Of a stretch of 64,000 bases of DNA, positions 4,677 to 53,850 are shown piece after piece. The translations under genes and the position numbers were made by a program. The notes beneath the pieces were generated by a model that saw only the letters and a list, made by a program, of their open reading frames with translations, ran no database searches and was not told the DNA's origin. Position 1 is the first letter of the stretch; every line of letters starts with the position of its first letter. Source of the stretch: an uncultured bacterium (GTDB taxonomy: Bacteria; Vulcanimicrobiota; Xenobia; Xenobiales; Xenobiaceae); assembly GCA_934636825.1 (NCBI GenBank), contig CAKUBG010000011.1:6313-70312 (forward strand), in the 5' to 3' direction.

Positions 4677-4704
4677 AAAAAAACTATTTACTTTGCAAAA
4701 CAAC

Positions 4705-5554: not shown

Positions 5555-5566
5555 AAAAACACAACT

Positions 5567-6769: not shown

Positions 6770-6863
6770 AAGCTTATTTTAGCTCGAAAGACCGTTCGTC
6801 GCTTTTCTGCAGGTTTTGCAAGGGGCGGCGAGAATTGAGCGGCCTTCTTGGAGATGATTTGCA

Positions 6864-7397: not shown

Positions 7398-7430
7398 CTG
7401 AACTTTAGCGGACAGCTTTTACATTATATT

Positions 7431-9206: not shown

Positions 9207-9247
9207 ACGATAGAAAACTAATCTATACTAACGTTACACACAAAAAA

Positions 9248-9292
9248 ATAGCGGGTAAGTGAAAGAAAATTTCGCTTACCCGCTATTTTTTA
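9248..9292. terminator. Bidirectional intrinsic terminator
   Basis: Arms agcgggtaag (9250-9259) and cttacccgct (9275-9284), flanked by an A-run upstream and ttttttat downstream. It lies between convergent genes. Confidence 0.65.
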
Positions 9293-9303
9293 TAATTTGC
9301 AAA

Positions 9304-9744
9304 CTAGAAAATCAGAGGGCCAAAAAAAGTGAAGAAAAAGCCTGAAGGCCTGCGTCCAGGCTCATATGTTCCAGCGGAAATTTTATTTCTGCTAGAAGCA
9401 GCTTCGTTATCAGGCATTCCTTTAACTACATAGGCCACTTCGCCTTTGCTTACCATGCCCAACTTTTCTCTGGCCGCATCTTTTACTCCGTCGGCTTGTT
9501 GCAAACGGGTCTTCTTTTTCTCCAAGATGTCGACTTCAGCTTGAACTTGAGCAACATCGCGCTCACATTCTTCCAATTGAGCCAACTTAGTACGATACTC
9601 TTGGCGTTGTTCGGAAATAATCACACACCCATAGTAGACGCCTACAATAAGCAAGACCAACAACACTGCGCCAAACGCACCATTTATAAAAAGAGAAGAC
9701 CTTAAAAAACGTCTAAGTTTCGTTATCAAAACCGCCCCAGCCAT
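9304..9744 (-). CDS. Septum-formation initiator family protein (FtsB/DivIC-like)
   Basis: ATG at 9744 (MAGAVLITK...). Single TM, then a coiled coil and the family-typical ending AREKLGMVSKGEVAYVV. Confidence 0.5.
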   Translation of the reverse strand: MAGAVLITKLRRFLRSSLFINGAFGAVLLVLLIVGVYYGCVIISEQRQEYRTKLAQLEECERDVAQVQAEVDILEKKKTRLQQADGVKDAAREKLGMVSKGEVAYVVKGMPDNEAASSRNKISAGTYEPGRRPSGFFFTFFGPLIF

Positions 9745-9860
9745 TTTGTCGGAAGAAAATACCCCCACCCCCAACAAAAAGAAACCGCAGGAATATTCTA
9801 GCTTGCTTTGAACGTTTTCCTGCTTTTTCAGCTAGGCCTTAAAAAATTGGCCCAAAAAAA

Positions 9861-10862
9861 CTACTTTTTGCTATCGGCTTTGGAAGTAGCAGGCGCAGCT
9901 CCAGACTGTTTTTCCACTTGGTTAAGTCCGGGAGCTTCTCCATCTTTAGGCATAGCACTACTGAATCCGGCTCCGGCCTTAGGTACAACTCTAGGTCTGA
10001 AAACACGACTTTTACGATCAAAAATTCTTAAGTCTTCCATGTCTTCATCCAAAAAGCGCACTGCATAAACCCAAACGGTTCTATCATCGGCCACAATTAC
10101 AGAGCCGTCTTTTATATTCATATAAGCTTGGCCTTCAATACGCCCTTTGCCCAAAACTTCTATATTTTCCGGCAATTTTTCTTTGGGACTAACTACGATA
10201 GAACCTACATAGTTAATTTGAGCTACATCCATGCCATTATCATCATGACGAATATCGGCAACAGAATATTTAAGACGGTGCTCTAAAACTAAAGATTTAC
10301 CGGAAACAGTATCCAAAGGATAGTTAATTACCCAGCGACTATCCCAGGGCTCGCCTATACGTACTCTTTTGTTGGGACGGCCAATCCACAGAGAAGATAA
10401 AAGCTGAGCGGTGTGCGTTTCGTCTACTAAATTTGATTTGCGACCTTTGATAAGCTCGAACCCCTCGATAACGCCCTTAGGACTCAAACGCATAGTAAAA
10501 ATATTCTCCAAGAATGAAGCCGGCTTATTAACTCCGATTTGAGCCAATTTGGCTTCTTTTACTAAATAATTGACTACAGGTTGAGCTCCACCGCGCTCAG
10601 TTTTTTCGATAAAGCTGAGAGCTAAATCGTATACATCAGGCTGAACACTATCATCTATTTCTAAGTTGGGAGTTTCACTTAATCCTCTTATTTCACGCCC
10701 ATTTAAAAGCATAGAAACAACATTGACCACATCGGCTTTGCCTTCTTGAAGTTTTAAAGGCATAGAAATGCCGAAAAGACCTCTGCGCATGTCAGGAATA
10801 AACAATAGAGCCAATATACCGACAATTATTACAGAGCCTATGACAAAGGCTATTCGTTTCAT
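9861..10862 (-). CDS. Membrane-anchored hypothetical protein
   Basis: ATG at 10862 gives MKRIAFVIGSVIIVGILALLFIP (signal anchor). No recognisable domain. Confidence 0.4.
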   Translation of the reverse strand: MKRIAFVIGSVIIVGILALLFIPDMRRGLFGISMPLKLQEGKADVVNVVSMLLNGREIRGLSETPNLEIDDSVQPDVYDLALSFIEKTERGGAQPVVNYLVKEAKLAQIGVNKPASFLENIFTMRLSPKGVIEGFELIKGRKSNLVDETHTAQLLSSLWIGRPNKRVRIGEPWDSRWVINYPLDTVSGKSLVLEHRLKYSVADIRHDDNGMDVAQINYVGSIVVSPKEKLPENIEVLGKGRIEGQAYMNIKDGSVIVADDRTVWVYAVRFLDEDMEDLRIFDRKSRVFRPRVVPKAGAGFSSAMPKDGEAPGLNQVEKQSGAAPATSKADSKK

Positions 10863-11217
10863 AAATATAAATCCCATCAACCAAATTAAACAACAAAATT
10901 GCGTTACCGGATCTGTTATTCCTGCCCGATCAAGTAAACGCTCTCTACTCTGCGCGATAAGTTTCAAAACGAAGAATAAAAGGACTAGATATCACGTAAC
11001 AATACAAAATGTTATTATATAGTTTTTATTTTACTACATTTAGTAGAGGACATTTATAGTTGATACAATAGGTGGGAGTTGATTCTTTGGTTTTAAATTG
11101 ATAGAGTTGAAACGCGTGCTCACGGAAAAAAAACGCGCGACCAGGTGTTTTTAACGTGTTCTTGTTCTGTGTGTAGAGCCTTACTTTGTACAGAAAGTTT
11201 GAGCCATCTGAATATAT

Positions 11218-21853: not shown

Positions 21854-23164
21854 TTATTTAACAATCTGGCGCATGATAAAGCGCACTGGATAGTTGGAAG
21901 CTCCTTCCGGAAGCGTTAGGAGGCGTACGACTGCGCTCTGTCCGGCAGGCACAGAAAATGAAGCAGCCTTATATTCACTGAAAGGCTCAGCTTCTTTAGT
22001 CAAAGAGCGATCGTTATATTGGTTGCCGAAACGGAAATAGGCTAAATCCGGCACTTGTTCGCTTAACCAAGCGGTAGGCTCTATTATTTGATTATAAAAA
22101 TCAGTTTGCTCCAAAACAGTAGCTGTGGCCTTTCCTCCTCTGGGGTTGATCACAAGTTCAAAATCGGCTGCGCTTGCAGTTGGGTTAATAAGCAAAAATT
22201 GCAAAGCATAAACGACTCCATAATCGCCTCTAAGTTCTGGGCCAACTATTATATTGGGCTGTCTGAGCGCTCCCACAGCGGCGCGGACTTCGGAAGCTTT
22301 GTCATCTTCGACAATAACCGCCTTATTGATAAATTGATCGGCGCAAGCGTAGATGCCGCGAGCGTGAACATCCTTGGGATTGGAAAGTAAATTAAAACTC
22401 AGCATCTCCTGAGGATCTTCCAAAGCATTCAAATAGAAACTTACTTCGCCACCTTCCAAAAGAGTAAATTGAGTTGTACCGCTAAGCACCTGGCAATAGG
22501 GCAATTTTTGACAAAAAACTGTTATACTTTGCTCGGGATCTATTTCCAAAAGGCGACCGCAGCCAGCAGCTAAACAGCGTAAAAATTGCTCATTATTTTT
22601 ATGTCCAGCCTGAAAATAATCTCTATCCGGGCCACCTTCACCCTCAATTAGCATAATTGTAGCTTTTTGGCGTCGTGAATTGTTACGCAAATCTAAACGA
22701 AGCCACAATTGATTATCCTCTTTGCCACCTTCATGATAATATTGAAAACGCAAAGGCTTAAAGGGAATAAGTCCTCCTTTAAATAACAAACCGCGCTCTT
22801 TAACACGCTCAGGATGATCGGAAAAAGACAAAATCTCAGTTTTGAGATTTGGATAAGCAACATTTTTAATCAGCAAACCGTTGGATAGGCAAATTTGCTG
22901 GCCCGGATAAAGCTCGGGCAAAGTTTCCTCAATGGAAAATCCCAAGCGTTTAGCCGTAGCTTGCAAATAGGCACTATTGGCAGGATTACCAAAGACTGTT
23001 AAAATGTTTTTTTTCCCTTTTTGGGCAGCTTCAGAAGTATCAGTTTTAATAGAAAAATTTTGCCCTTCGCTCTGAGTTTGAGCTTCGACTGAATAAGGCA
23101 TAAACATAAACAAACTTAGCCAAAATCCCAACCCTACTAAAAAGAAATAATATTTAAATCGCAT
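21854..23164 (-). CDS. Secreted hypothetical protein (436 aa)
   Basis: Signal peptide MRFKYYFFLVGLGFWLSLFMFMPYSVEA. Last gene of a three-gene minus-strand operon. No recognisable domain. Confidence 0.45.
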   Translation of the reverse strand: MRFKYYFFLVGLGFWLSLFMFMPYSVEAQTQSEGQNFSIKTDTSEAAQKGKKNILTVFGNPANSAYLQATAKRLGFSIEETLPELYPGQQICLSNGLLIKNVAYPNLKTEILSFSDHPERVKERGLLFKGGLIPFKPLRFQYYHEGGKEDNQLWLRLDLRNNSRRQKATIMLIEGEGGPDRDYFQAGHKNNEQFLRCLAAGCGRLLEIDPEQSITVFCQKLPYCQVLSGTTQFTLLEGGEVSFYLNALEDPQEMLSFNLLSNPKDVHARGIYACADQFINKAVIVEDDKASEVRAAVGALRQPNIIVGPELRGDYGVVYALQFLLINPTASAADFELVINPRGGKATATVLEQTDFYNQIIEPTAWLSEQVPDLAYFRFGNQYNDRSLTKEAEPFSEYKAASFSVPAGQSAVVRLLTLPEGASNYPVRFIMRQIVK

Positions 23165-23184
23165 ATATTTTTACCCTAAAAAAA

Positions 23185-24060
23185 CTAGTCATCCTCAGCA
23201 AACAGTTCTTCTATACTGCTGGGAGAGCGGTGAGTATAAATTAAAGAGAGCATTTTCCCCTTAGTGCGACAATTGGGTAAGTCTAAGTTTTCGCTGCCCA
23301 AAGCATTGTCGAGATAAGTTTTTAAAGGTATAACCAGTTCGGTATTTTCGGTAATAATTTGATAAATGATAGGGTGGCTGCCTGAGGAAAAAATACGCAC
23401 CGGTTGCTTGCCTTCTAAGTTAGCAATAACCAATTCTATACTGCCACTAGAATTGATGCGCGGATAAACACTAACAAATAAAGGATTATCGGAATCGTCA
23501 CTTTCGCAGACAACTTCTTCCAAAATGCGCAAAAATTCTTGCTCTTTGCTATTAAAATTGAATAAATATGAAGCGTGGCGCGAATCTTTAGCCAACTGGG
23601 GTAAAGTTGAACCCGGTTTATACACAGTATCGTACAAAGGCAAAGCATAAGGATAAGATACCCAGCGGCGCGTGCCTATATATTGAGTGCGATCGAAGCG
23701 CTCGCTGCCTATTACTCTATCCAACCAACCTTTAAAATCGTTAGCAAATTGAGTGCGTGCGGTCATAAAAGCACAAGAACAAGACAAACCACTTATACAA
23801 TTAAGTTTTACTTTTTGGCACACACCATTCATAGTAACATGTAATACTACCGGAGAAGCCGGATTGTAGCGTGGCTGCAATTCAAATTCAAGCTGATTTT
23901 GATGCAAAAATTCAACTAAATATTCTTCGGTAACTGTAAGACTGTAAATAGGTTCTTGTACGTAACGAAATAAAGTAGGTTTGCTTTCCAGCGATTTCCA
24001 GGTCAGATGTTCGACCATACGCCGCTTGCGTCTTAGAAGCTCTTGTCCTGATTCAAGCAT
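23185..24060 (-). CDS. Hypothetical cytoplasmic protein (291 aa)
   Basis: Long ORF separated by 20 nt from the downstream gene. No signal peptide and no known motif. Confidence 0.4.
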   Translation of the reverse strand: MLESGQELLRRKRRMVEHLTWKSLESKPTLFRYVQEPIYSLTVTEEYLVEFLHQNQLEFELQPRYNPASPVVLHVTMNGVCQKVKLNCISGLSCSCAFMTARTQFANDFKGWLDRVIGSERFDRTQYIGTRRWVSYPYALPLYDTVYKPGSTLPQLAKDSRHASYLFNFNSKEQEFLRILEEVVCESDDSDNPLFVSVYPRINSSGSIELVIANLEGKQPVRIFSSGSHPIIYQIITENTELVIPLKTYLDNALGSENLDLPNCRTKGKMLSLIYTHRSPSSIEELFAEDD

Positions 24061-27865: not shown

Positions 27866-28651
27866 TTAACTTTCTTGTCCAACTAGACGCCTAATAGATA
27901 ATTCTATGTATTCCTTGGCATTGTCAATTCCAATGTATCGTCTTGAAAGTTTCTTAGCTGCAACTCCAGTTGTTGAACTACCACAAAAAGGATCTAAAAC
28001 CAACGCTCCTTCATCGGTAGATGCGAGGATAATTCTTTCAAGAAGATATAATGGTTTCTGTGTAGGATGTTTTCCATAACTTTTTTCTTTTATTGAAGTC
28101 AGGGAGCCTCTCCAAACATCCTTCATCTGTTTTCCAGAGTTCATTTCTTTCATTAAAGCGTAATTAAAATAATGCTTTGCAGTTTTTTCATTCTTCTGCG
28201 CCCAAAGAATCGTCTCCGTGCTATGCGTGAAGCAGCGACATGCTAAATTAGGTGGAGGGTTTGTTTTTTGCCAAGTTATATTGTTAATAATTTTGAAGCC
28301 TTCTTGTTCAAGAGCGACACCAATACTGTAGATATTGTGGAGTGTTCCACTTATCCATATGCTTCCATTAGTAGTCAATGCCGCTTTGCACAGCCTAATC
28401 CAACTACGATTGAATTTATGCTTTTCTTCAAATGATATTGCTTTATCCCAATCACCTTTGTTTACAGAAACCATACGACCTGCATAGCATGTAATTCCAC
28501 CACTACTTAAAAAGTATGGCGGATCAGCGAATATCATATCCACCGTTCCAGGTTTAACTTTCTCGAGAACGGAAAATGCATTCCCAAGTATTAGCATTTC
28601 AGTCTCTGTTTTATAAGCACAATTTATATTTTCAGAGAATATATTTTCCAT
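27866..28651 (-). CDS. Beta-class N6-adenine/N4-cytosine DNA methyltransferase (DpnA/MboIB-like second methylase)
   Basis: Motif IV IFADPPYF near the N-terminus and motif I DPFCGSSTTG near the C-terminus (beta-class order). Lies in an AT-rich region. Confidence 0.85.
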   Translation of the reverse strand: MENIFSENINCAYKTETEMLILGNAFSVLEKVKPGTVDMIFADPPYFLSSGGITCYAGRMVSVNKGDWDKAISFEEKHKFNRSWIRLCKAALTTNGSIWISGTLHNIYSIGVALEQEGFKIINNITWQKTNPPPNLACRCFTHSTETILWAQKNEKTAKHYFNYALMKEMNSGKQMKDVWRGSLTSIKEKSYGKHPTQKPLYLLERIILASTDEGALVLDPFCGSSTTGVAAKKLSRRYIGIDNAKEYIELSIRRLVGQES

Positions 28652-28662
28652 CAGATGTTACA

Positions 28663-29520
28663 CTAGTAGTTTGTAATAATAACTTCTTTTCCAACACGCT
28701 TTGATGCATCTCTGTTGATAGCTCGCCTAACATCTATAACTTTAATTTTGAATCCTTCGTACAGCTGATAAACAAGAGCCACATTATGATTACTCATCAT
28801 TACTTTAACTCCAATAGCATCTAGTCTTCTAAACAATGACGCTAATCTGCAATGATCGTCATATCCAAAACCATCTTTGGCATAATCAGTAAAATTAGCC
28901 GTTTCACTAATAGGAATGTATGGCGGATCGAAATATACAAAATCACTAGCGTGTACATCAGCACACGCTGCTTCAAAATCTCCACGGCGAATTTCTATTT
29001 CATATTTATTCAAATAATACCCGATACTGCGTAGATTTTCTTCACTCATAGAAGTCCCACCAACTTTGTTATTGTAGGGGACATTGAATATTCCGTGTGA
29101 ATTTACTCTATATAGCCCGTTAAAACAATGTTTATTTATCCATATAGTAAGAGCTGCGCACTCTGCATCAAGAACATGCTCAACTATTTTTTTGTTATAC
29201 GACTCTCTCATTAGTAAATAATAGTTTTTGTCGCATTCTACAGAATCAAAACTGGATAATATTTTTATTACAGCTTCTGCATCAAATTTGAGTTGACGAT
29301 AAACATTAAGCAATTGTTCATTTATATCATTAATTACTGCTCTTTCTGGCTGTACATCTAGTAAAAGAGCACCTCCACCAATAAATGGTTCAAAATATCT
29401 ATTATACGATTCAGGTATACACTCTTCTAACTTTCCAAGAAGCTGTCTTTTTCCACCTGCCCACTTTACAAATGGACTTATTTTTAATTTATTCACATGA
29501 CACCTCATACAAATTGCCAT
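28663..29520 (-). CDS. Dam-family (alpha-class) site-specific DNA adenine methyltransferase, predicted GATC
   Basis: PFVKWAGGKRQLL, FEPFIGGGAL (motif I), then YFDPPYIP (motif IV), the canonical Dam/DpnM order. The start may be the internal Met (MRCHV...). Confidence 0.88.
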   Translation of the reverse strand: MAICMRCHVNKLKISPFVKWAGGKRQLLGKLEECIPESYNRYFEPFIGGGALLLDVQPERAVINDINEQLLNVYRQLKFDAEAVIKILSSFDSVECDKNYYLLMRESYNKKIVEHVLDAECAALTIWINKHCFNGLYRVNSHGIFNVPYNNKVGGTSMSEENLRSIGYYLNKYEIEIRRGDFEAACADVHASDFVYFDPPYIPISETANFTDYAKDGFGYDDHCRLASLFRRLDAIGVKVMMSNHNVALVYQLYEGFKIKVIDVRRAINRDASKRVGKEVIITNY

Positions 29521-29613
29521 TTACGCGCTTTGATTATTAGCATTTTGTTATTGAATTACCACAATAGAAAGTAAAAAAGCTACAACTATTCTATTCTGGT
29601 AATAATTATGTTG

Positions 29614-30267
29614 CTATAGACTCATATGCCGGATATCATAGACAAATTGTCTCTGAAAATAAAATGCGTGATTCTTATTAGAAACATATCTACCATATAC
29701 TTCGGAATAAATCGGATGATACGGTCTAGAGTCTTTGCTGCGTACCTGAAGATGCCTACCGTTAGATGTATGAATAAAGCCATCTGAACTTTGTTCAATA
29801 TGATGTCTAAGTTGCTCACAAACAGAATAATAATCATTTTCCCAAATATTTTTTAAGTCGCCATATCGTGGTGAATTTAGATCAATATGTATACTAGGAA
29901 GATACATCCAGCTCTCAGGTTCTCCGTCTTTGCATACCGGGACGTAAAGTATATTTTTAATTTTTTCATAAAGATGCGTTTGCTCGAATGGTCGTTTTTG
30001 GATCAATTCATCTATGACACTACTAATCTGAGTGATAAATACAGTTTCTCTCGGATTTCCAGCTGCATCGCACTTATTTGTCTTCAGTTCACCATCATCA
30101 AAATCCAAGTTATTACTTGATAAACGCATTCCCAGCGATAACTCTAAAAGCTGACCTGTCTTTCCTTTATTAATCTTTATTGTGTTCATGTCTATTGGTG
30201 AAAACAGTTCGCCAAAGCGGATGCCTGCAAGTTTATTAAGCCTTATATGCGCTTCTGCAAGTTTCAT
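29614..30267 (-). CDS. MutH/Sau3AI-family endonuclease (predicted GATC-specific restriction or nicking enzyme)
   Basis: NKGKTGQLLELSLG aligns by eye with MutH DKGWIGVLLEIWLG. The catalytic D...E-x-K appears as DFDDGELKT, compared with MutH DFAALGVELKT. Size of 217 aa is similar to MutH. It is directly upstream of two methylases. Confidence 0.75.
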   Translation of the reverse strand: MKLAEAHIRLNKLAGIRFGELFSPIDMNTIKINKGKTGQLLELSLGMRLSSNNLDFDDGELKTNKCDAAGNPRETVFITQISSVIDELIQKRPFEQTHLYEKIKNILYVPVCKDGEPESWMYLPSIHIDLNSPRYGDLKNIWENDYYSVCEQLRHHIEQSSDGFIHTSNGRHLQVRSKDSRPYHPIYSEVYGRYVSNKNHAFYFQRQFVYDIRHMSL

Positions 30268-42698: not shown

Positions 42699-43955
42699 TT
42701 GCGCAAGCTCGTATTATTGCTTTCGGCTCTTGTCTTGGCGGTCGGGCTAAACTATACCGGTTTTACCGAAAATGCCATAGCTCAAGAAAATTCTTCTAAT
42801 AACTCTCTAATTCTGATTCAGTCTGAAATTGCCGGCACGGAAGTTTTCGGCAGCGGCGTCATTGTACTGACCGGCCGTGAAAATTGTCAGGCCGTAACCA
42901 GCTACGAAGCCATTAAGGGAGCTTCCAGAATTACGGCTTTAGCTGCCGGCTATTCCCCAGTGCCCGCGAAGATTCTGCGTTTTGCTCCGGACGCCAATTT
43001 GGCTTTGCTGGAAATTCCTATTCCGGCTCTGCCAGCGGCCAAACTCGGAGACAGTGAAGTTGTAAAAAATGATACTCCTGTAGCCATTTCTTACGCTTCT
43101 CCGGTTTTGAGCGGCAACGTAGCCACTTCTTTCGACGGCGGCAAACGCGGCGGCACAGTCATTGACGTCATCAATCGTCCCGGCGGTTCAGTCATGCGTC
43201 TCAAATTGTCAGGGCCTTTGCAAGACGACACCAGCGGTGCTCCTGTTTATTTACCCAATACCAATGAGCTGATAGCGATTTCCCTTTCTATAGAAGCGGC
43301 TTCCGGTCATAATGATATGCGCTTTGCAATTCCTATTGCCATGGCTGGTGCTCTCTCTCCCAATATTAAATCTTCTTCAGACTCTATTGCCAATATCAGA
43401 GTATTGGATGGCGAAGACGCTCCCGTCCTTGAAGGCGGAAATGATAAAGGCGCCAATGACGAAGAAGGAAGCCCTTTAATTCCCATTATCGTAGGTGTAG
43501 TCGTAGTTGTAGTATTAGGTGGTGTTGCCTACTTTGTTTTGGGAGGCAAAAAGAACAAAGCTGTCGAGCCTTTCTCAGTCTTGCCTATTTTACCTGAAGA
43601 TACTCCTATGGCTTTTGTTACTGCCGAAGGTAGTATTCTCCCCTTCACTAAAGATTCAGTTATCGTCGGACGTTCCGAAAGCAGCGATTGGTGTTTCCCT
43701 GAATCCAGCGTTTCCGGACGTCACGCCCGCATTCGTAAGAGCCGCGACGGCTCCAGCTACGAATTGGAAGATTTAGGCAGCAGCTACGGCACTTTCATTC
43801 GTGGTCGACGTGTAGGCCGCAGCGACGTTATCCATCCCGGAGACATAATCCGTTTTGGAGACGTAACCCAAATAAAACTTCTTACCAGAGCTGAATCTCA
43901 AGCGAAAAATGCTCTTAACGCAGCTAAGCTTGAAGGAGAAGATGAAGATCAATAA
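42699..43955 (+). CDS. Exported trypsin-like (probably non-catalytic) domain / TM / cytoplasmic FHA-domain protein
   Basis: Signal peptide. Trypsin_2-like GSGVIV, DANLALLEI, DDTSGAPVY, but the expected His position reads AVTSYEAI. TM segment IIVGVVVVVVLGGVAYFVLGG. FHA motif GRSESSD...VSGRHARI...DLGSSYGTFIRG. Confidence 0.7.
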   Translation: MRKLVLLLSALVLAVGLNYTGFTENAIAQENSSNNSLILIQSEIAGTEVFGSGVIVLTGRENCQAVTSYEAIKGASRITALAAGYSPVPAKILRFAPDANLALLEIPIPALPAAKLGDSEVVKNDTPVAISYASPVLSGNVATSFDGGKRGGTVIDVINRPGGSVMRLKLSGPLQDDTSGAPVYLPNTNELIAISLSIEAASGHNDMRFAIPIAMAGALSPNIKSSSDSIANIRVLDGEDAPVLEGGNDKGANDEEGSPLIPIIVGVVVVVVLGGVAYFVLGGKKNKAVEPFSVLPILPEDTPMAFVTAEGSILPFTKDSVIVGRSESSDWCFPESSVSGRHARIRKSRDGSSYELEDLGSSYGTFIRGRRVGRSDVIHPGDIIRFGDVTQIKLLTRAESQAKNALNAAKLEGEDEDQ

Positions 43956-43998
43956 GGAATAGGCGCTGCCCCCAAGGGGCGGCCATCCTGCAATCCAA

Positions 43999-44035
43999 AG
44001 CCTCAAGGGGGAACCCCTTTGAGGCTAATTTTTTT
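43999..44035 (+). terminator. Rho-independent terminator
   Basis: Arms agcctcaagggg (43999-44010) and cccctttgaggct (44014-44026), followed by aattttttt. Confidence 0.7.
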
Positions 44036-44052
44036 AAGGAGAGTTTTATCAC

Positions 44053-45291
44053 ATGGATGTAAATTTGACCAAATATGATGTGTTTTTGGCCATCGCCGGT
44101 CGCACTAAGCCCATAAATAAAGAAGCTTTAGTTAAAACTATGTGGCTTGATGAGAGCTCTTCTTTAGAAGCAATTTTGAACGAATTGCTAAAAGAACAAC
44201 TGATTCGCACTGTTCCTGACGGCTATACTAAAGGGGTCAGCTCCAAAGGACAAACATTGTTAGAGCTTTTGCTTTTAGCTATAGCTTATGAGTATGATTA
44301 CAATCTTTATTTGTCAGAGCCTATTCAAGATCTCTTAAAAGCTGTTTATAAACTCAATGCCTTTACAGAACGCGATTTGGAATCTTTGCCCGATTGGCGC
44401 TGCTATCTACATCATTTGATAAAGGATCAAATGATTTTATTTATTAGCTATGATCCACCCTCAATGCGTTTAGCTCGTACTCTCTTCTTTGACTTAATTT
44501 GCAATTATTTTGACATTTCGCCTAAAACTAAATTCTTTGATACCAAAATCGATCTCAATAAGGTCATTATTTCCAAATTGACGGCTAAAAGATTAAAAGA
44601 CCGAGCCAGCATAGGTCTGGGAGCCCGCTTTATTTTTGGTTCAACTAATGACAAACCTCAAAAAGTTGGCCTTTCCAAAATGCAAAGGCTGCTGGCTTAT
44701 GATATTGTACCTGAGCAAGCAGATGTCTTTGATAAGAAAGCCAAAGCTGATTTTGCCGAAGCTAAAAAATCTTTAGAGCGCAATTCTATACTTTTGAAAC
44801 GTCACCTAACTATCGATACTATCAAAGAATATCATAAATTGGCTATGGCCAGCTCAGGTGTTTCCGATATATATCGCAAGTTCGATGTAGAAATAAAAGC
44901 TAACCCCTACTTTAAAACAGCAACCTGGAAAAAAATTCCTCAAATGATGGATAAGCTTATGGATGATTACAACACTATTTTAAAATCATCCAAAACGGTA
45001 TTTGACGCTTTTAATTTGGCTGCTTTTTTCTATAACGAGTTGATTCACATTCATCCTTTCGAAGACGGAAATAGTCGCACGGCTTTCCTGTGTTTATTAC
45101 ATATTCTCAACTTATTTAATACAAGAATTACTTCTATACCAGCCAGTTTCGATTATAGTTTTATTCAAGCGACAAAAGGGCAAAGAAAGCGCAATGATCG
45201 TGATTTAGTCGAATTACTCAAAGAAATTTACGTAGTTATTCTAAATCAGGAAGAACTTAAACTTATGACTGAATTGGCTGCCGGTTGTTAG
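44053..45291 (+). CDS. Fic-domain protein with N-terminal winged-helix-like region
   Basis: Fic motif HPFEDGNSRTAF, compared with the consensus HPFx[DE]GN[GK]R. The gene is visibly more AT-rich than its neighbours. Confidence 0.8.
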   Translation: MDVNLTKYDVFLAIAGRTKPINKEALVKTMWLDESSSLEAILNELLKEQLIRTVPDGYTKGVSSKGQTLLELLLLAIAYEYDYNLYLSEPIQDLLKAVYKLNAFTERDLESLPDWRCYLHHLIKDQMILFISYDPPSMRLARTLFFDLICNYFDISPKTKFFDTKIDLNKVIISKLTAKRLKDRASIGLGARFIFGSTNDKPQKVGLSKMQRLLAYDIVPEQADVFDKKAKADFAEAKKSLERNSILLKRHLTIDTIKEYHKLAMASSGVSDIYRKFDVEIKANPYFKTATWKKIPQMMDKLMDDYNTILKSSKTVFDAFNLAAFFYNELIHIHPFEDGNSRTAFLCLLHILNLFNTRITSIPASFDYSFIQATKGQRKRNDRDLVELLKEIYVVILNQEELKLMTELAAGC

Positions 45292-45301
45292 CGTTTGCGA
45301 T

Positions 45302-46204
45302 ATGGCCAGATATCAAGTAGGAGAAATTATAGATAAACTTTATCGCGTGACCGACTATCTTGGTGAAGGGGCGCAAAGTTATGTGTATTCTGTCAGCGAT
45401 GCCAAACGTCCCAGGGCCCATTGGGCCCTAAAGCAGTTGCGTCTGGAAGATATTCCCGCTGACGAACAAGATGCTGCCAGTGAAATGTTTGCCAGAGAAA
45501 GCTTTATTCTCAAGCAATTACATCACCCAGCCTTGCCAAAACTTATCGATTACAGATCTCCTGCAGGCGCAGCTCCCTATATAGTGATGGAATGCATTAA
45601 AGGCCAGCCTTTAGACGAAGTCTTAACTAAACGCACTAATCCTTTGCGCTTGGAAGAGGCTTTGCCTATAGCTTTACAATTGACGCATTTATTGCACGCT
45701 CTTCATAGCCAAACTCCGCCTATTATTTACAGAGATTTGAAACCTTCAAATCTTATCTTGTCAGATAGCGGTATGATTCGTCTAATAGATTTTGGCATCG
45801 CTCGTTTTCGCAGCGCCGATTCTCTTAAAGACACCCAAGAGCTAGGTACTCCGGGATATTGTGCTCCCGAACAATATAGAGGTTACTCTTCGGTTCAAAG
45901 CGATCTTTATTCTTTGGGCGTAGTTATTTACTACATGCTGACTTTCAAAGATCCCCAAAGTATGAATTTCAATTTTCCCCGTCTTGATACCATTATCCCT
46001 AAGGCCCCTACTGCACTTGTAGATTTATTGGCATCTTGCTTGAGTATAGATGTCAACCAAAGACCCAAAACGGCTCAAGAAGTACGTCGCATACTTTTCA
46101 AAGTGTTGCAAAATTACCAAGCCATGCCTATTAGCAAAGGTACTCAGCCTTTGGAGCCCGGCTTGCAAAATCTCAGTCACCATTTATCTATGCTAGAATT
46201 TTAG
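45302..46204 (+). CDS. Hanks-type Ser/Thr protein kinase (catalytic domain only)
   Basis: G-loop GEGAQSYVY, WALKQL Lys, catalytic loop YRDLKPSNLIL, DFGIAR, GTPGYCAPEQ. No TM or sensor domain. A 10-nt gap follows the Fic gene. Confidence 0.9.
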   Translation: MARYQVGEIIDKLYRVTDYLGEGAQSYVYSVSDAKRPRAHWALKQLRLEDIPADEQDAASEMFARESFILKQLHHPALPKLIDYRSPAGAAPYIVMECIKGQPLDEVLTKRTNPLRLEEALPIALQLTHLLHALHSQTPPIIYRDLKPSNLILSDSGMIRLIDFGIARFRSADSLKDTQELGTPGYCAPEQYRGYSSVQSDLYSLGVVIYYMLTFKDPQSMNFNFPRLDTIIPKAPTALVDLLASCLSIDVNQRPKTAQEVRRILFKVLQNYQAMPISKGTQPLEPGLQNLSHHLSMLEF

Positions 46205-46235
46205 TTAAAGCGACAGATTATACTCCCAAATTAAA

Positions 46236-46272
46236 TAAAGCTAAACTAACTGTGATGGTTGGTTTAGCTTTA
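46236..46272. terminator. Bidirectional hairpin between the convergent kinase gene and the 306-aa gene
   Basis: 11-nt arms taaagctaaac (46236-46246) and gtttagcttta (46262-46272). AT-rich flanks. Confidence 0.5.
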
Positions 46273-46298
46273 TTTAATAGAAAAAGTTTTGGAAACAA

Positions 46299-47219
46299 TT
46301 ATAAAGGCAAGAATAGTCTGTACTTAGAAGAGAACTTTTCTCTCTGACTTCTAATAATATTGGAAGCTTCTTTGCCATCACCCAAAGCAACAGAGCAACT
46401 GCCTAAAGGATGTGTTTCATCGGCAGACCACACTACTACAGCTCCGGAAGGCAAATCTTTGAGTTGTTCGGGAGCAGAATCGGTACATTCCACAAATTTA
46501 TCCGATTTAGCCAGAAAATCAGCCAATTCAGCCGCAGTCTTGCCTCCCACTTCAACACCTTTGGCGCTTAAAGCCTGACCTACAGGCTTAAAGTCGAAGA
46601 AACCAGGTTGATTAGCTTTCTTCTTAATTTCCTCACCTAATTCGTTGCCGAAATCTGTCGCTGTAAATCCATCTTTGGCTGAAGAAGAAACTTTCTTAGC
46701 CTGAGGAGCAGAATTCTCTTCAGCGCTGCTTTCTTTTTCCGGAATAGGCTCGAAGTAATAGCGACCGATACTTTCAATTTGTTCGTAAGCATCGGGATAG
46801 TAAAAATGCAAAAAGATCAGACGAGCCTCTTGCAACCCTTTCAAAAGTTGGTTTTCGTCCTGAATTTTTTTCTTTTGTTCAGGAGTACCACGATCCATAA
46901 TTTTCAAGATACTGGTAAATGAGCGCACCTCGGGAGCCAAAGAAGACAGCTCAGCAATAGGTTCATCAACTTCTTCATAACACTTATTGACATAACTCGT
47001 ATAAGCGTTGAAATCTGAATTTATATAGGCACTGACCATGCCTACAGTAGCTGCCGTAACTCCACTATTGTGACCTTTGCGATCGGCCGGATTAGTCAGT
47101 GAACCGGAAAGAGTTGACGAAACAGCCAACAAACCATCAAATATAGCCGCCGGAGTATTATATACATTTACTCCTATCAGCGACGCTACAGATCCTAAAC
47201 TGAATTGACCAAAGCCCAT
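46299..47219 (-). CDS. Hypothetical protein (306 aa)
   Basis: Gly/Ser/hydrophobic N-terminus, a central Ser/Glu/Lys-rich linker, and a C-terminal globular region (GAVVVWSADETHPLGSCSVALGDGKE). Last gene of the rlmD-clp-FHA transcription direction. Confidence 0.4.
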   Translation of the reverse strand: MGFGQFSLGSVASLIGVNVYNTPAAIFDGLLAVSSTLSGSLTNPADRKGHNSGVTAATVGMVSAYINSDFNAYTSYVNKCYEEVDEPIAELSSLAPEVRSFTSILKIMDRGTPEQKKKIQDENQLLKGLQEARLIFLHFYYPDAYEQIESIGRYYFEPIPEKESSAEENSAPQAKKVSSSAKDGFTATDFGNELGEEIKKKANQPGFFDFKPVGQALSAKGVEVGGKTAAELADFLAKSDKFVECTDSAPEQLKDLPSGAVVVWSADETHPLGSCSVALGDGKEASNIIRSQREKFSSKYRLFLPL

Positions 47220-47310
47220 TTATCTTAACTATCCCTTAGCTATGCAAACAGAATTAACTTCTGATCGGCGCTGTTTAGACAAGCTAAACAGAAGCCCTCT
47301 ATGAGGCTGC

Positions 47311-47598
47311 TTAACTCCAACTTATATGAAGCCAAGTTCTGCCTATAATAAACTCCTGACCGTTTTTTAAAGCGACGCTGCCATAGAGCCGCTCTCCATC
47401 AACAAAAGTTCCATTAGTAGAGCCCTTGTCTTCTAGAATAACTCCTCCGGCAGTAGGTTCCAAGACAGCGTGGTGGCGACTAACAAAGCGATCCACACTC
47501 AAAGCGACATCACCTTCGCGGCCAATTTGCACTCGCTTGTTAAATTGGAAGACGTATCCATCTAACGGTCCGCCCAACACTTCAAGCATTATTCTCAT
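47311..47598 (-). CDS. Stand-alone FHA-domain protein
   Basis: Canonical pThr-binding residues: GREGD, SRHHAVL, GSTNGTFVDG. ATG at 47598 lies 2 nt after the clp stop. The ORF-track TTG at 47610 would overlap that stop by 10 nt. Confidence 0.8.
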   Translation of the reverse strand: MRIMLEVLGGPLDGYVFQFNKRVQIGREGDVALSVDRFVSRHHAVLEPTAGGVILEDKGSTNGTFVDGERLYGSVALKNGQEFIIGRTWLHISWS

Positions 47599-47600
47599 AC

Positions 47601-50600
47601 TTATTGCCAATTGCCCCTTTCATTATTGTCAACGTTCGGCTCTAATCTACGGCTAAAAGGGCCAGGAGAACCGGGCTGGGGCGGACGCGGTACCACTCCC
47701 TGAGGCGCTGTCGGAGTGCCATTGTAGCTTCCCTGCGACCAATTGCCCATAGAATCTGGAGCAGCAGGAGGAGCCTGGGGGCGAGGCGGCCTAGGCGCAG
47801 GACGGACTCCGGCAGGAGGCGTTTGCGGACGAGGAGCTCCTACACCTGGCCTCTGGCCAGCCACCGCAGGGCGAGCTCCAGTAGGTGCAGGCTGAGCATT
47901 GCCAGGAGCTACAGGGCGCCTACCTACGCTAGAACTGTATCCTGAAGGCATACCTTCAGGGATTTCACCACGAGCAGGTTGTTCCTGACGCGCTTCAGCA
48001 TAATCGTTCCGTCCCTGCTGCTGAGGATAGCCGCCTTGCTGCTGAGAGTGGCCACCTTGCTGTTGAGGGTAGCCACCCTGTTGTTGAGGATAGCCGCCTT
48101 GCTGCTGAGGGTAGCCACCCTGTTGTTGAGGATAGCCGCCCTGCTGTTGAGAGTAGCCACCTTGTTGTTGAGGATAGCCACCTTGCTGTTGGGGGTAACC
48201 ACCTTGCTGTTGGGGGTAACCACCCTGTTGCTGAGGATAGCCACCTTGCTGTTGGGGATAACCACCCTGTTGTTGAGGATAGCCACCTTGCTGTTGGGGG
48301 TAACCACCCTGTTGTTGAGGATAGCCGCCCTGCTGTTGAGGATAGCCACCTTGCTGTTGAGGATAGCCACCTTGCTGCTGAGAGTAGCCACCCTGTTGCT
48401 GAGGATAGCCGCCTTGCTGTTGAGGATAGCCACCTTGCTGTTGGGGATAACCGCTTGGCTGCTGAGAATAACCGCTCTGCTGCTGAGAGTAACCTCCTGG
48501 CGCACCAGAATAAGCAGAAGATCCGGATTCAATTTCTTGACGACGAGGCGACTCAGTTGTGGAAGGCGAATTATCGCCCCCAAAAGTATCACCCAAAGCG
48601 CGGTTGTCCAAAGAGAAATTTACCTTTTCCTCGTTTTCATCCATATCGGCCCAAATAACAGTATTTGGCGGCACTTTATGGCGCAAAACGTATTCGGCAA
48701 ACGGTCTGGTAAGCCAAGTGTCGATAGCTCTATTTAAAGGACGGGCACCATATTCCGGATGATAGCCTTTATCGAGTAAGAAGTTGATAACAGCTTTAGT
48801 AACATGAAGATCTACTTGGCGGCTCTCACGAATGCGCTTTATACATTTGGATAAGTTTATATCAACGATACCTTGCAAATCTTCGCGCTTGAGAGTTTTG
48901 AAAACGATAATTTCATCGATACGGTTTAAAAACTCCAGACGGAAATGACCGCGCAATGCTGCTTGGTAAACTTCAGGCATGTCGTCTAATTGGCCGACGT
49001 ATCCTCTGTCAGTAGGCAAAATATTAGCCAAAGGATTTTCCATCTTGGCTAAAGCGCCCATTTCCTCGTCTCCGGTAGCCTTTTCCAAAGCGGCACCGGC
49101 TGCCGCCACTTGAGCTGAAGCCATATCCAAAGCTTTACGTGAGCCCAAGTTGGAAGTCATGATAATAATGGAATTGGTAAAGTTGACGGTACGACCTCTG
49201 GCGTCAGTTAAGCGTCCATCATCGAAAACTTGCAAAAATAAGTCAAAAACGTCGGGGTGTGCCTTTTCGACTTCATCGAGCAAAATAACGCAGAATGGCT
49301 TAGTGCGCACAGCTTTAGTCAGCTGGCCCTCACCTTCGTAACCGACGTATCCTGGAGGAGCACCTATTAAGCGAGCGATAGAATGCTTGTCGTGAAATTC
49401 TGACATGTCCAAACGGATCATATCGCGCTCTGAACCGAAAAGAAATTCAGCCAAAGTTTTGGCCAACTCGGTTTTACCGACACCGCTGGGCCCTAAGAAA
49501 AGGAAAACGCCACTGGGTCTAGTAGGCGAAGAAAAACCTACACGTACTACACGTATAGTGCTGGCCACCGCAGCAACAGCATGATCTTGACCAACTACAC
49601 GCCCACGCAATAGGTTTTCCATATCCAATAAACGAGCTTCTTCTTCGTTGGCTATGCGGGAAATAGGCACGCCCGTCCAATCAGCAACAACCTCGGCGAT
49701 AACCTCTTCGGTAACTTCTTGCATTCCTTGTTGTTGACAATTACCGCGAGTTTTGATGCGAGCCGCCGCTTCGTCTATTAAGTCTATGGCTTTATCTGGC
49801 AAATTTCGATCAGGCAAAAATCTTACGGACAACTTGACAGCCGCCAACAAAGCTTCGTCTGTAAATTGCACATGGTGATGTTGCTCGTATCTTCCCCGCA
49901 AGCCTTTCAAAATTTCCAGAGCATCTTCTTCAGAAGGCTCACTGACGAATACTTGTTGGAAGCGACGCTCCAAAGCAGGATCGGCCTCAATATGACGGCG
50001 ATATTCGTCAATAGTGGTAGCGCCCATAACAGCCAAATCTCCACGAGCTAAAGCCGGCTTGAGGATATTGCCAGCATCCATGCCTCCACTACCACCAGCG
50101 CCGACAATTTGATGTATTTCATCAATAAACAGAATAATAGATCTGTCTTTGCTAACTTCTTCGATAACTTGCTGTAAGCGCTTTTCAAATTCGCCACGAT
50201 GGCCAGTGCCAGCAACAAGCGCACTCAGGCTCAATTCGATTAAATGGTGGTCTTTTAAAACGTCCGGCACGGTACCATCGGCCAGACGCTGAGCCAAGCC
50301 GTAAGCTACCGAAGTTTTACCAACACCTGCCTCACCGACCAATACCGGATTAGACTTGGTTTTGCGCGTTAAAATTTCCAAAACGCGACGAACTTCATCG
50401 TTGCGACCAATAACTGGATCCATCTTCTTTTGACGAGCCAATTCAGTTAAATCGCGTCCGTATTCTAAAAGCTGCTTATGTTCACGAGCGAATTTCCGCC
50501 CATCGGCAGTCATATTCTTATCACCGCCACGACTGAAAAAGCCACCGCCCCCACCCGAAGACTTAGGAGCCTCAGGACGACGCACACCACGTATAGAATC

Positions 50601-51017
50601 GCGCAAAGCTAAAAGATCTACATCACGCGAAATTAAAAAGCGGCAAGGTACGCTGCGCCCTTCGCGCAAAATTGCGGTAATAACGTGCTTAGGCTCAACT
50701 CTGAGAGCTTGCTCCGATTCTGCTTCTTCCGGAACCATCGTTTTCATGAGACGAGAATAACGCGGAGTTTCGGGCAATTTTTCCGAAATATCCCACATAG
50801 GTTCGTCGTCAGAAGAAGGCACAAATTCCAAAATGCCCTCTTCGAGCTCAGAAAGAGGCACGCCGACATCTTCTAAAGCTTCTGCCAAGGAACGATCCAA
50901 CTGGCAAGCAGCAGCAAAGAAGTGCTCAATACCGAGGTAGTAGTGTTTCCAAGAACGAGAGAGCTGATTGGCTCTGGCAATAACTCGTTCGGTAGCTTCG
51001 CTGTTATTTATGGCCAT
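47601..51017 (-). CDS. ClpB-like two-ring AAA+ ATPase lacking the M-domain, with a Q/G/Y heptad-repeat and Pro-rich C-terminal extension
   Basis: Clp_N repeats. D1 has GEAGVGKT and ILFIDEIH; D2 has GPSGVGKT and [10 protein letters not shown], plus MTSNLGS and [11 protein letters not shown]. The D1-D2 linker is only about 20 aa ([39 protein letters not shown]). The last roughly 330 aa are low complexity. Confidence 0.88.
48015..48497 (-). repeat. 23 in-frame tandem copies of a 21-nt unit encoding GGYPQQQ
   Basis: On the plus strand the unit reads ctgttgttgaggatagccacc and variants. 483 nt equals 23 x 21. Units differ mainly at synonymous positions. Protein variants are [21 protein letters not shown] and GGHSQQQ. 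Confidence 0.95.
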
Positions 51018-51018: not shown

Positions 51019-52446
51019 CTATTTCCGAATAATGTGAGCTACACACTCAACGTGGTAAGTTTGAGGGAACATATCGATAGGCTGCACTTCTAAAACTGTG
51101 TAGCCTTTTTCAGTAAGAATCCCCAAATCGCGAGCTAAGGTAGAGGGATTGCAAGACACATAAGCTATACGCGGAATGCGCATTTTGGCGATAGTCTCCA
51201 AGACTACAGGATCGCATCCTTTGCGAGGAGGATCCAATACAGCGGCACTAAAACTGGTGCGACGCTGCAACAGAGAGCCTTTACTACACAATCCCGGCAA
51301 AACTTTTTCTACAGTACCATCCATAAAAGTCGTATTTGTCAAACCGTTAAGATCGGAATTGACTACGGCGTCTTCAATGGCTTCTTGACATTCATCAATA
51401 CCAAACACGCGTTTAGCCTGACGAGCCATATATAAGGCCAGAGAGCCTACACCACAATAGGCGTCTAAAATTGTATCTCGAGGCTGAATTTGTAAGAACT
51501 GATCTAATTGAGAGTAGATCGTCTCCAAACCTTCTATATTAACTTGGAAGAAAGAATTAGCGGAAATATTAAACTTTAAGCCTGCTACTTCCTCGACAAT
51601 ATGGTCGCTGCCCCACAAAACAGAATTGCGAGTACCTAAAATAACGTTGGTACGATGCGGATTCAAATTTAAGACCACACCACAGAGAGAACGTACACGC
51701 TTGCGTACAATATCCACAAATTCTCTCACTTTGGGCAAACGAGGCTGACTGGAGACAATAACCAGAAGAGTTTGGTTAGAATAGTAACCATGACGAGCTA
51801 CCAAATAACGAATGGCACCGCTACCGTCTTCGCTATTATAAACTGGCCATTGTAAGCGTTCTATGGCCTCGCGGCAAGCATTCATCAACTCATTGTTTAC
51901 TTCATGTTGAATGGCACAATTTTCTACTCTGACAATTGAGTGAGTGCCTTTAGCATAGTAGCCTACATAAGGGTGGAAACGCGGCACATCGTTTTCTTCT
52001 TTTTGATCGACGCGCAAAAGATAAGGCTTAGCTCCCACAACCATTTGCGTCTTAGAGCGATAGTTCCAAGGACGAGTCATTCGCTTGCAAGGACGCACCT
52101 TTACACCGTCAAGGCCGGCTATGTGACGCAGAGCATCTTGCACCATCTTCGTTTTAAACTCGAGCTGAGAATCATAATTTACATGTTGCAAATGGCAACC
52201 ACCACACTCGCTATAAACGGGACAACGAGGCTGAATACGACGCATAGAAGGAACAATAATCCTGTGAATGCGGGCTCGGCCATAGTTTTTCTTTAACTCG
52301 GTAATTTGGGCTTCCACCTTATCCCCGGGGGATGCACCGGGAATAAAAAGTACGAAGTTACCTACTCTTCCCACGGCTTCTCCGCCTACTGCAAAATCAT
52401 TGATAGTCAGCTCTACTCGCTGACCGACAGATAAAGAATCGGCCAT
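51019..52446 (-). CDS. 23S rRNA (uracil-C5)-methyltransferase, RlmD/RumA family
   Basis: N-terminal TRAM domain, Fe-S cysteines [17 protein letters not shown] motif [15 protein letters not shown], and catalytic Cys context YVSCNP. Confidence 0.8.
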
Positions 52447-53319: not shown

Positions 53320-53850
53320 CTAATTTAATTGAGGCGACTTTTTAGCCTTATAGATAAACAGCGGAGGCAAATCTAAAGAGCGAATCTTCCAGCCCGCTCT
53401 GGTCTTTTCAAATTCCCATATCCAAGGCGGAGCATCGGGATATTTAGAATCGGAGACCTTAATAATCGCCGAATCACCGGAAACACGCTCGTCAACAACT
53501 ACTCTGGTTACATAGACGCTCTTGGTGGAAGCCATAGAATAATATCGTTCCATGCCTTCCTCGAAACCTTTGAGATTTACTCTCATTTTGGCATCTACCC
53601 CCAAAGCGGCATAGGCTTCCTTATATTTCCTAGCTTTGACATTGTCGAGAAATTCGCTAGCTATCACAAAAGGACGACGACTTATATCCGGAGGTGGAAC
53701 GAACTTTTCATCAGTTTTTTGGTTGATGGGAACTTCCGGCGCCGAACAAGCCTCAGCCAAGCACAGAACAGGAATCAGCAGTATCAGTAGGACAAACTTT
53801 TTGCAAGCTGACCAATTTTTCAATTTTCGCAATTTAAGTCCAAACACCAA
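53320..53850 (-). CDS. Exported hypothetical protein
   Basis: N-terminal hydrophobic signal ending LCLAEACSAPE (possible lipobox). No known domain. Confidence 0.4.
   Translation of the reverse strand: MVFGLKLRKLKNWSACKKFVLLILLIPVLCLAEACSAPEVPINQKTDEKFVPPPDISRRPFVIASEFLDNVKARKYKEAYAALGVDAKMRVNLKGFEEGMERYYSMASTKSVYVTRVVVDERVSGDSAIIKVSDSKYPDAPPWIWEFEKTRAGWKIRSLDLPPLFIYKAKKSPQLN

Follow-up and report, generated by a model that had tools for sequence, protein, structure and literature searches.

Adaptor proteins choose the targets of Clp/Hsp100 machines. Adaptors of the MecA type are bound by UVR-type M-domains, and phosphoarginine is, to our knowledge, the sole phosphorylation mark that feeds a bacterial Clp unfoldase directly. 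Among the threonine-phosphorylation pathways of type VI secretion systems (T6SS) is that of A. tumefaciens, comprising PpkA, pTssL, and Fha. In the related pathway of the P. aeruginosa H1-T6SS, PpkA, Fha1, and ClpV1 are joined in one threonine-phosphorylation pathway (PMC3953482). In Listeria/Bacillus, PrkA-ReoM-ClpCP controls MurA (PMC7286690), and phosphoarginine is reported to direct proteins to ClpC1P1P2 (PMC13345244). Here, we describe an 8.3-kb region (positions 42699-51017) within a 64,000-nucleotide (nt) stretch of DNA, referred to as the window. The host is a 'Candidatus Bruticola'-like primate/human-gut bacterium (Xenobia, Eremiobacterota/Vulcanimicrobiota). The region encodes a Clp-like ATPase next to a small stand-alone FHA protein and, in convergent orientation, a second FHA protein, a Fic protein, and a Hanks kinase. 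The ATPase and the small FHA protein are inherited together across a phylum-level clade. The 8.3-kb region as a whole is not one module but brings together, in a lineage-specific arrangement, three units that are inherited separately. On balance, we consider it probable that the ATPase is a phospho-regulated unfoldase served by a pathway running from a kinase via phosphothreonine to the FHA protein, with the convergent kinase operon as its genus-level neighbor.

Pairing of the ATPase with a small FHA protein and with kinases

An earlier sequence-only reading had listed six open reading frames (ORFs) for the region. All of them were present at the coordinates, with the domains, and in the convergent orientation given there, as confirmed by Pfam and NCBIfam scans. 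Together with the adjoining rlmD, they were assigned to unit A (rlmD, Clp-like ATPase, small FHA protein), unit B (TryFHA, Fic, kinase), and unit C (306-amino acid (aa) protein).

42699-43955, plus strand: TryFHA, 418 aa; signal peptide, Trypsin_2, one transmembrane helix, FHA
43999-44026, plus strand: terminator-like hairpin between TryFHA and Fic (consensus scan); 12-bp stem with 7 GC pairs, T-run
44053-45291, plus strand: Fic protein, 412 aa; C-terminal Fic domain
45302-46204, plus strand: kinase, 300 aa; Pkinase only
46299-47219, minus strand: 306-aa protein; no Pfam or NCBIfam match
47311-47598, minus strand: small FHA protein, 95 aa; FHA only; TTG-extended ORF to 47610
47601-51017, minus strand: Clp-like ATPase, 1138 aa; Clp_N, AAA, AAA_lid_9, AAA_2, ClpB_D2-small, Q/G/Y-rich tail
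48576-51017, minus strand: ATPase core, aa 1-814; Clp_N and two AAA+ rings, Walker A/B intact
47601-48575, minus strand: C-terminal ATPase tail, ~325 aa; disordered/low-complexity
51019-52446, minus strand: rlmD, 23S rRNA m5U1939 methyltransferase; TRAM and MTase domains; first gene of unit A

The small FHA protein matched Pfam FHA (PF00498) with 58.3 bits against a cut-off of 20.7. Its gene had been thought either to follow the ATPase gene at a distance of 2 nt or to overlap it by 10 nt. The former is favored: all orthologues and the public gene calls start at the counterpart of ATG 47598, 2 nt after the TAA of the ATPase gene, and this ATG (95 aa) is most likely the start codon. The phosphothreonine (pThr)-pocket residues GR, SRxH, and STNG were invariant in six aligned FHA sequences (that of the window and five orthologues), and the protein is predicted to be a pThr reader. 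The identical protein was found on 16 metagenomic contigs, human-gut (Hadza) assemblies among them.

Conservation of the pair was followed through 10 lineages (the window and nine other clade members), DNA being available for nine. The ATPase and FHA genes were adjacent in 10/10 lineages at ATPase identities of 49-100%, overlapping by up to 17 nt or lying up to 13 nt apart. The FHA orthologues (94-96 aa) were 45-69% identical to that of the window, and their divergence tracked that of the ATPase. Such a pattern would also arise if the two genes were neighbors merely through inherited operon structure, as in the case of rlmD, with independent functions and with the FHA protein serving other kinase pathways. 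This explanation fits the finding that rlmD (NCBIfam TIGR00479, 437.8 bits, cut-off 183.55), which ends 1 nt before the ATPase start and has no obvious functional tie to it, immediately preceded the ATPase gene in 9/10 lineages. It also fits the lack of a conserved candidate pThr site in the ATPase. Several observations nevertheless make it quite unlikely. In L179, where rlmD is absent and all other neighbors differ as well, the pair was still present. In every lineage, the two genes overlapped or were no more than 13 nt apart, and the FHA protein consists of its domain alone, lacking an effector part. The genes 3' of FHA were otherwise completely variable and mutually unrelated between lineages (an alpha/beta-hydrolase-like lipoprotein, kinase-TPR, DUF1800, secreted low-complexity proteins), and the 306-aa protein had no homology to the post-FHA genes of other lineages.

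Other Clp loci also argue against mere inheritance of operon structure. The controls were 80 genomic ClpC loci and 80 metagenomic Clp loci, obtained from scans that were aimed at the clade and returned generic Clp proteins. The genomic scan built from the full-length alignment gave generic patterns (RLIGxPPGY, DMSEYHDK), the N-domain alignment contained no stretch that was conserved enough, and the metagenome scan with a 41-aa clade-specific segment returned generic ClpB-type loci. A search with a profile of the FHA orthologues, which does detect the unrelated TryFHA domain, found an FHA gene at 0/160 of these ClpC/ClpB loci. Adjacency in all 10 lineages compared with none of the control loci substantiates the earlier view that the ATPase and the stand-alone FHA protein are a real pair. 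A literature search yielded no description of an FHA-ClpC or FHA-AAA+ pairing outside T6SS.

Basal lineages (L017:8002-8490, L018:8129-8566, and those of clusters P0098 and P0092) encode a conserved 132-162-aa small protein directly upstream of rlmD, which has no counterpart in the window.

With a kinase profile, a Hanks kinase was detected no more than 10 kb from the pair in 4/9 clade lineages with DNA. The same profile matched one Hanks kinase across control flanks totaling 2.25 Mb, a rough baseline with controls from other phyla. In L017 and L018, the FHA gene is followed at a distance of 11-22 nt by a same-strand gene for a Pkinase-TPR protein, and a second kinase is also present upstream in each locus. 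L181 carries a response-regulator/sigma-54/kinase fusion 7 kb upstream. The kinases beside the pair in L017 and L018 are TPR-fused and ~32% identical to the window kinase. In five lineages, neither a kinase gene nor one for Fic or TryFHA lay within 10 kb of ATPase-FHA. The claim that a Hanks kinase belongs with the pair thus holds for some lineages, as evident from the kinase-TPR gene directly behind FHA. An empty entry ('-') in the public precomputed Pfam table could not be read as absence of a domain, because the 659-aa kinase-TPR protein is listed there without one. The recurrent independent placement of kinases and the invariant pThr pocket together form the main support for a pathway leading from a kinase via pThr and FHA to the ATPase.

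In L017 (12720-15761) and L018 (12676-15744), FHA is followed by kinase-TPR and then by a response-regulator/HATPase_c_2 (RsbW-like) protein. At the P0098 locus, two genes come after FHA, in this order: one for another Clp-family ATPase (835 aa) and one for a 662-aa unannotated protein, close in length to the 659-aa kinase-TPR of L017/L018.

Class and anatomy of the ATPase

The ATPase has the domains of a class-I Clp/Hsp100 protein, i.e. Clp_N, two AAA+ domains with Walker A/B motifs, and D2-small (Pfam; AAA_2 211 bits). It was about equally close to solved structures (PDB) of ClpB (635 bits) and ClpC (625 bits). Its scores stayed below the equivalog cut-offs for ClpB (TIGR03346; 819 versus 1232.1 bits, with the match split into three stretches) and for ClpA (701.3 versus 993 bits). 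The score for TssH (TIGR03345; 690.5 versus 884.95 bits) was below the cut-off, too, and lower than those for ClpB and ClpA. The homologues formed a discrete clade of ~100 clusters with 49-100% identity; below that, identity was at most 43%, and the matches listed in this range were nearly all canonical UVR-bearing ClpC. The closest named homologues belong to 'Candidatus Bruticola sp.' (91% identity), followed by metagenome-assembled genomes (MAGs) of Vulcanimicrobiota, Eremiobacterota, and Xenobia.

Seventeen clade members were aligned with five canonical ClpC proteins. The M-domain (~55 residues) is deleted, and D1 is joined to D2 by a short linker, shorter than even that of ClpC. In line with the deletion seen in the alignment, the UVR domain (PF02151) was listed for none of the clade clusters P0001-P0100 in the precomputed Pfam lists. 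The ClpP-docking (L/I/V)GF loop is absent. The canonical LGF/IGF is replaced by G(Y/F/M)(V/A)GQLD in the clade, GYVGQLD in the case of the window ATPase, and basal members have no counterpart at all. The D1 pore loop reads GHRGEFE in the window ATPase and (G/K)HRGEFE in the clade versus KYRGEFE in canonical proteins, a change of Tyr to His; the Tyr is retained only by the two most basal clade members. The D2 pore loop, GYVGYE, is intact.

Compared with ClpC from Bacillus/Mycobacterium, the window ATPase shares the order Clp_N, D1, D2, D2-small at ~40-43% identity, whereas the UVR/M-domain, the (L/I)GF loop, and the D1 Tyr of ClpC are all three missing. One of the control loci (L025), from an Eremiobacterota MAG, encodes a canonical ClpC with KYRGEFE, UVR M-domain, and IGF loop; the FHA-linked ATPase is therefore a paralogue of ClpC and not the ClpC of the phylum. 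Assignment as a ClpB disaggregase was ruled out by the missing long coiled-coil M-domain and the score under the TIGR03346 cut-off. Assignment as a canonical ClpC was ruled out by the missing UVR M-domain and LGF/IGF loop.

The tail of the ATPase contains a (GGYPQQQ)n array at 48016-48470 (21-nt period, 21.7 copies, 81% matches; Tandem Repeats Finder) and ends in a Pro/Arg/Gly-rich stretch. The number of heptad-like units varied from 12 to 23 between contigs of the species, although short-read assemblies may lower it by collapsing repeats. The tails of other clade members have a different P/G/S-rich sequence or are absent. In its Q/G/Y-rich composition, the tail resembles the oligopeptide repeats of yeast Sup35 (PQGGYQQYN), and it is carried here by an ATPase of the Hsp104/ClpB family.

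The convergent operon, the 306-aa protein, and the wider locus

TryFHA consists of an exported domain (Trypsin_2, 38.4 bits), one transmembrane segment, and a cytoplasmic FHA domain (66.2 bits). Alignment of the HtrA-like domain to MucD, Deg1, and DegQ showed that the catalytic His is replaced by Glu and the Asp by Asn, with the Ser kept. The corresponding motifs, TSYEA and ANLALLE, are repeated in the orthologues of two further lineages, L182 and L183, and a PDZ domain is lacking. An active HtrA/DegP serine protease was ruled out because the His-Asp-Ser triad is incomplete, and the domain is predicted to be a pseudo-protease. Moreover, it is not linked to the ATPase outside the genus, and the 'sensing protease' proposed earlier is not supported. 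The family of full-length TryFHA proteins is narrow (11 clusters, at least 49% identity). In the FHA domain of TryFHA (43650-43955), the Asn of the S-x-N-G motif is Tyr (GSSYGT), and the L182 and L183 orthologues have STNGT.

The Fic protein matched Pfam Fic with 55.2 bits (cut-off 24) and belongs to the Fic fold. Its motif, HPFEDGNSRTAF, in which Gly8 is changed to Ser and the second Arg to Phe, does not match the canonical HxFx(D/E)GNGRxxR and recurs in the orthologue of L182 (53% identity). An inhibitory (S/T)xxxE(G/N) motif was not found in the protein, the N-terminal 250 aa of which are uncharacterized. The kinase matched Pkinase with 134.7 bits (cut-off 31.7), and three orthologues share the motifs GEGAQS, ALK, YRDLKPSN, DFG, and APE. 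With all catalytic motifs present, it is predicted to be a soluble Hanks-type Ser/Thr kinase. The strong hairpin behind TryFHA suggests that this gene can be transcribed separately from fic-kinase, the hairpin being a pattern match among terminator-like sites whose total was not above shuffle expectation.

Orthologues of the kinase were found after TryFHA(-Fic) in L182 (65% identity) and L183 (52%). The order in L182 (TryFHA 55% identity) is UvrD, MMPL, radical SAM, EamA, TryFHA, Fic, kinase, DivIC. In L183 (TryFHA 51% identity), it is MMPL, EamA, TryFHA, kinase, an opposite-strand orthologue of the 306-aa protein, and GroEL/ES, without a Fic gene between TryFHA and kinase. Neither locus contains the Clp-like ATPase or small FHA gene. 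TryFHA and kinase were thus adjacent in 3/3 lineages. Unit B is a family-level operon present only in gut Xenobiaceae and tied to the EamA/radical SAM/MMPL/UvrD flank. The clustering in the window is partly non-random in that both the ATPase-FHA and the TryFHA-kinase adjacencies are conserved.

Unit B resembles mycobacterial FhaB/FipA with PknA/PknB in that a membrane-anchored FHA protein is encoded beside a Ser/Thr kinase. The FhaB/FipA model (NF049868) was the best NCBIfam match of both FHA domains of the region (65.6 bits for the small FHA protein and 51.9 bits for TryFHA), each below the cut-off of 125. Unit B differs from the mycobacterial system by the exported, apparently dead HtrA-like domain, by a soluble kinase without PASTA or transmembrane parts, and by the Fic gene in between.

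The 306-aa protein had been regarded as an orphan. This view did not hold: an exhaustive HMMER search returned 326 representative clusters, nearly all of which match only the last ~120 residues. The family has a conserved Cys (GGWCyKyV) and a conserved His (GHPHGHISIALGDG). Weak matches to Pfam CHAP were obtained for 32/38 family members, and a profile search against the PDB aligned the family dyad to C23/H81 of Tae3 (PDB 4HZ9). AlphaFold with the alignment gave a mean predicted local distance difference test (pLDDT) score of at least 85 in every 10-residue block from residue 181; the single-sequence model (pLDDT 38.7) was unusable. The best Foldseek match was Tae3 (4hz9; TM-score 0.70, probability 1.00), followed by Ssp1, NlpC/P60, and Tse1. 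The amidase domain comprises ~aa 185-305 and is preceded by a helical N-terminal region. In the window protein, the dyad positions are Phe/Asp-type and Ser, and they are also replaced in the relatives P0168 and P0169. Because both catalytic residues are replaced, the protein is predicted to be a pseudo-amidase with a Tae3/CHAP-like papain fold. The likeness to Tae3/CHAP amidases is thus one of fold: the wider family keeps the Cys/His dyad, whereas the window protein and its close relatives have lost it, an extra ~180-aa helical region is present, and neither an immunity gene nor a T6SS accompanies the gene here. In L183, an orthologue with 64% identity is encoded next to the kinase, and the locus lacks the ATPase/FHA pair. 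The 306-aa gene therefore adjoins unit B in two distant lineages (window and L183) and unit A only in the species of the window. A role as ATPase-linked output, as suggested earlier, is not supported for a pseudo-amidase lacking a link to the ATPase outside the genus.

The sequence-only reading had combined the six genes into a single self-contained module, in which a protease-like envelope sensor would act through a kinase/FHA relay to control the ATPase and/or the 306-aa protein. The phospho-regulated unfoldase at its core is reasonable, because the ATPase-FHA pair is conserved and a Hanks kinase (kinase-TPR in L017/L018) accompanies it in some lineages; the self-contained 8.3-kb module did not stand. 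In favor of the latter, the gene order was identical on every contig of the species of the window that spans both operons, and TryFHA and an ATPase orthologue appear to lie on one 70,397-bp contig of a 91%-identical Bruticola MAG. In addition, kinases recur beside ATPase-FHA in other lineages, and no other kinase is as close to the small FHA gene as that of unit B. However, unit B occurs without ATPase/FHA in L182 and L183, and none of the nine other lineages with ATPase-FHA has unit B beside it. The juxtaposition of units A and B is confined to the species group of the window. The operons are convergent and each is tied to a different conserved flank: uvrD, MMPL, radical SAM, and EamA on the side of unit B, and the housekeeping genes rlmD, tatA, rng, ffh, and rpsP on that of unit A. 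The kinases of L017/L018 are, as noted above, of a different, TPR-fused type. In L009, which belongs to the species of the window, phage tail genes occupy the place of the kinase operon. Because each unit occurs without the other and L009 has a prophage there, the juxtaposition is read as a genus-level accident of gene order, and a single module is unlikely.

The L009 segment (2116-10765) contains P2-like tail genes after the 306-aa gene, namely Phage_GPD, GPW_gp25, Baseplate_J, Tail_P2_I, Collar fibre, and Phage_tail_X. These genes point to a prophage or tailocin that lies in the convergent intergenic region.

The locus had also been likened to T6SS regulation. A split accessory locus (ClpV/TssH, Fha/TagH, PpkA) for a T6SS elsewhere in the genome would account for the three component types (kinase, FHA protein, double-ring Clp ATPase) that the region has in common with the PpkA-Fha1-ClpV1 pathway (PMC3953482), and for the closeness of the 306-aa fold to the T6SS amidase effector Tae3. 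We consider this barely conceivable. The TssH score is under its cut-off and lower than the ClpB score, and the TagH model (TIGR03354, cut-off 120.25) gave only 26.4 bits for the small FHA protein and 30.5 bits for TryFHA. This NCBIfam model has 420 positions, whereas the small FHA protein comprises just a 95-aa domain, with translational linkage to the ATPase. Pfam scans of ORFs of at least 150 aa confirmed the earlier statement that TssB/C, Hcp, VgrG, TssM, and PP2C are absent from the window, and no T6SS gene was present in the Pfam annotations of the ±10-kb flanks of nine relatives. Furthermore, the genes around the pair are housekeeping genes (rlmD, tatA, rng, ffh), and the Tae3-like domain is predicted to be catalytically dead, CHAP and NlpC/P60 folds being common outside T6SS. 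The analogy is therefore superficial. We know of no description of a T6SS in this phylum.

As members of a superfamily that includes PPP-type Ser/Thr phosphatases, two calcineurin-like metallophosphoesterases (Metallophos; 2608-3825, minus strand, and 3945-4676, plus strand) are the sole conceivable candidates for a phosphatase that the window offers, at a distance of 40 kb from the locus.

An anti-phage defense island with kinase, Fic, and AAA+ effectors was weighed as well. PADLOC returned domain-level matches to PD-T4-6/mad6 (kinase), SoFic/PDC-S04 (Fic), and PDC-M37B/DolB (AAA+), and a prophage is located beside the locus in L009. These matches reflect generic domain similarity, and TryFHA, the small FHA protein, and the 306-aa protein had none. 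In contrast to mobile defense islands, unit A is passed on vertically throughout the phylum within the core genome. With the GC content also unremarkable, a defense island is very improbable. A known PADLOC system was rejected, as only generic kinase/Fic/AAA domains matched and several components never matched one system.

Elsewhere in the window, two DNA methyltransferases (N6_N4_Mtase, D12/Dam class) and a weak MutH-like match (E = 6.5e-06, 26.4 bits) are encoded at 27866-30267 (minus strand), within the stretch of lowest GC content (0.35), and look like a DpnII/Sau3AI-type GATC restriction-modification cassette. ORFs of 436, 291, 368, 250, and 176 aa at 21854-24060 (minus), 9861-10967 (minus), 4802-5554 (plus), and 53320-53850 (minus) had no Pfam match. 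Rfam and tRNA scans of the window found no element.

A proposed route from Ser/Thr kinases to an unfoldase

In the favored reading, the ATPase would act as a ClpP-independent unfoldase or remodeler, and the single-domain FHA protein would be its dedicated partner, reading pThr placed by a Hanks kinase. The FHA domain could bind pThr on substrates, as an adaptor for a pThr-degron-like mark, or pThr on the ATPase itself or on another partner, as an on/off switch. The kinase would be encoded directly after FHA in some lineages; in the window, that of unit B is the nearest candidate, and another elsewhere in the genome might serve instead. Unit B itself is most likely an envelope-signaling module, in which the exported dead-protease domain may be a ligand-binding sensor, the cytoplasmic FHA domain of TryFHA may dock the phosphorylated soluble kinase, and Fic may add a second modification. 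The pseudo-amidase may bind peptidoglycan fragments.

The scheme resembles ClpC with MecA and McsB-phosphoarginine in that a dedicated partner would read a phosphorylation mark and couple it to an unfoldase. The partner of ClpC is McsB or MecA, whereas an FHA domain, a predicted pThr reader, would take this place here. In the PrkA-ReoM-ClpCP system, too, a Hanks kinase sets the target of ClpC via a small phospho-regulated accessory protein, as proposed here; ReoM, however, is an IreB-like phospho-substrate and not an FHA reader, and its system needs ClpP. We know of no conserved linkage with clpC at the gene level for this system.

Several points weigh against this reading. rlmD, although probably functionally unrelated, is nearly as conserved beside the ATPase as FHA is, and because of this, conserved synteny alone is weak proof of an interaction; physical contact between the FHA protein and the ATPase is proposed from gene adjacency. 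An alignment search found no Thr conserved clade-wide in the ATPase that could be the FHA ligand. ClpP independence would follow solely from the loss of a tripeptide, and the G-x-x-GQLD conserved at the docking-loop position in a subclade could be a variant docking element. In five lineages, no kinase is encoded within 10 kb of the pair. Finally, the sample comprised 10 lineages and is not a phylum-wide census, and the control loci came from other phyla, where kinase density may be lower.

A more specific version can be offered tentatively and with low confidence. The bare FHA protein would be an adaptor that binds Hanks kinase-marked targets, possibly including the ATPase itself, and delivers them to a Clp machine that works without ClpP and lacks the M-domain. 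Such a system would be a pThr counterpart of the phosphoarginine-ClpC route confined to Eremiobacterota, and the Sup35-like (GGYPQQQ)n tail of the gut lineage could drive condensates or assembly.

Recognition of the 8.3-kb 'cluster' as a chance-like juxtaposition prevents a wrong T6SS-style annotation. In the favored reading, the conserved gene pair would gain a concrete, testable function in a barely studied phylum with human- and primate-gut members. If the favored reading is true, a Clp paralogue without M-domain and ClpP loop, coupled to a pThr reader and often to a Hanks kinase, would constitute a new route from Ser/Thr signaling to protein remodeling.

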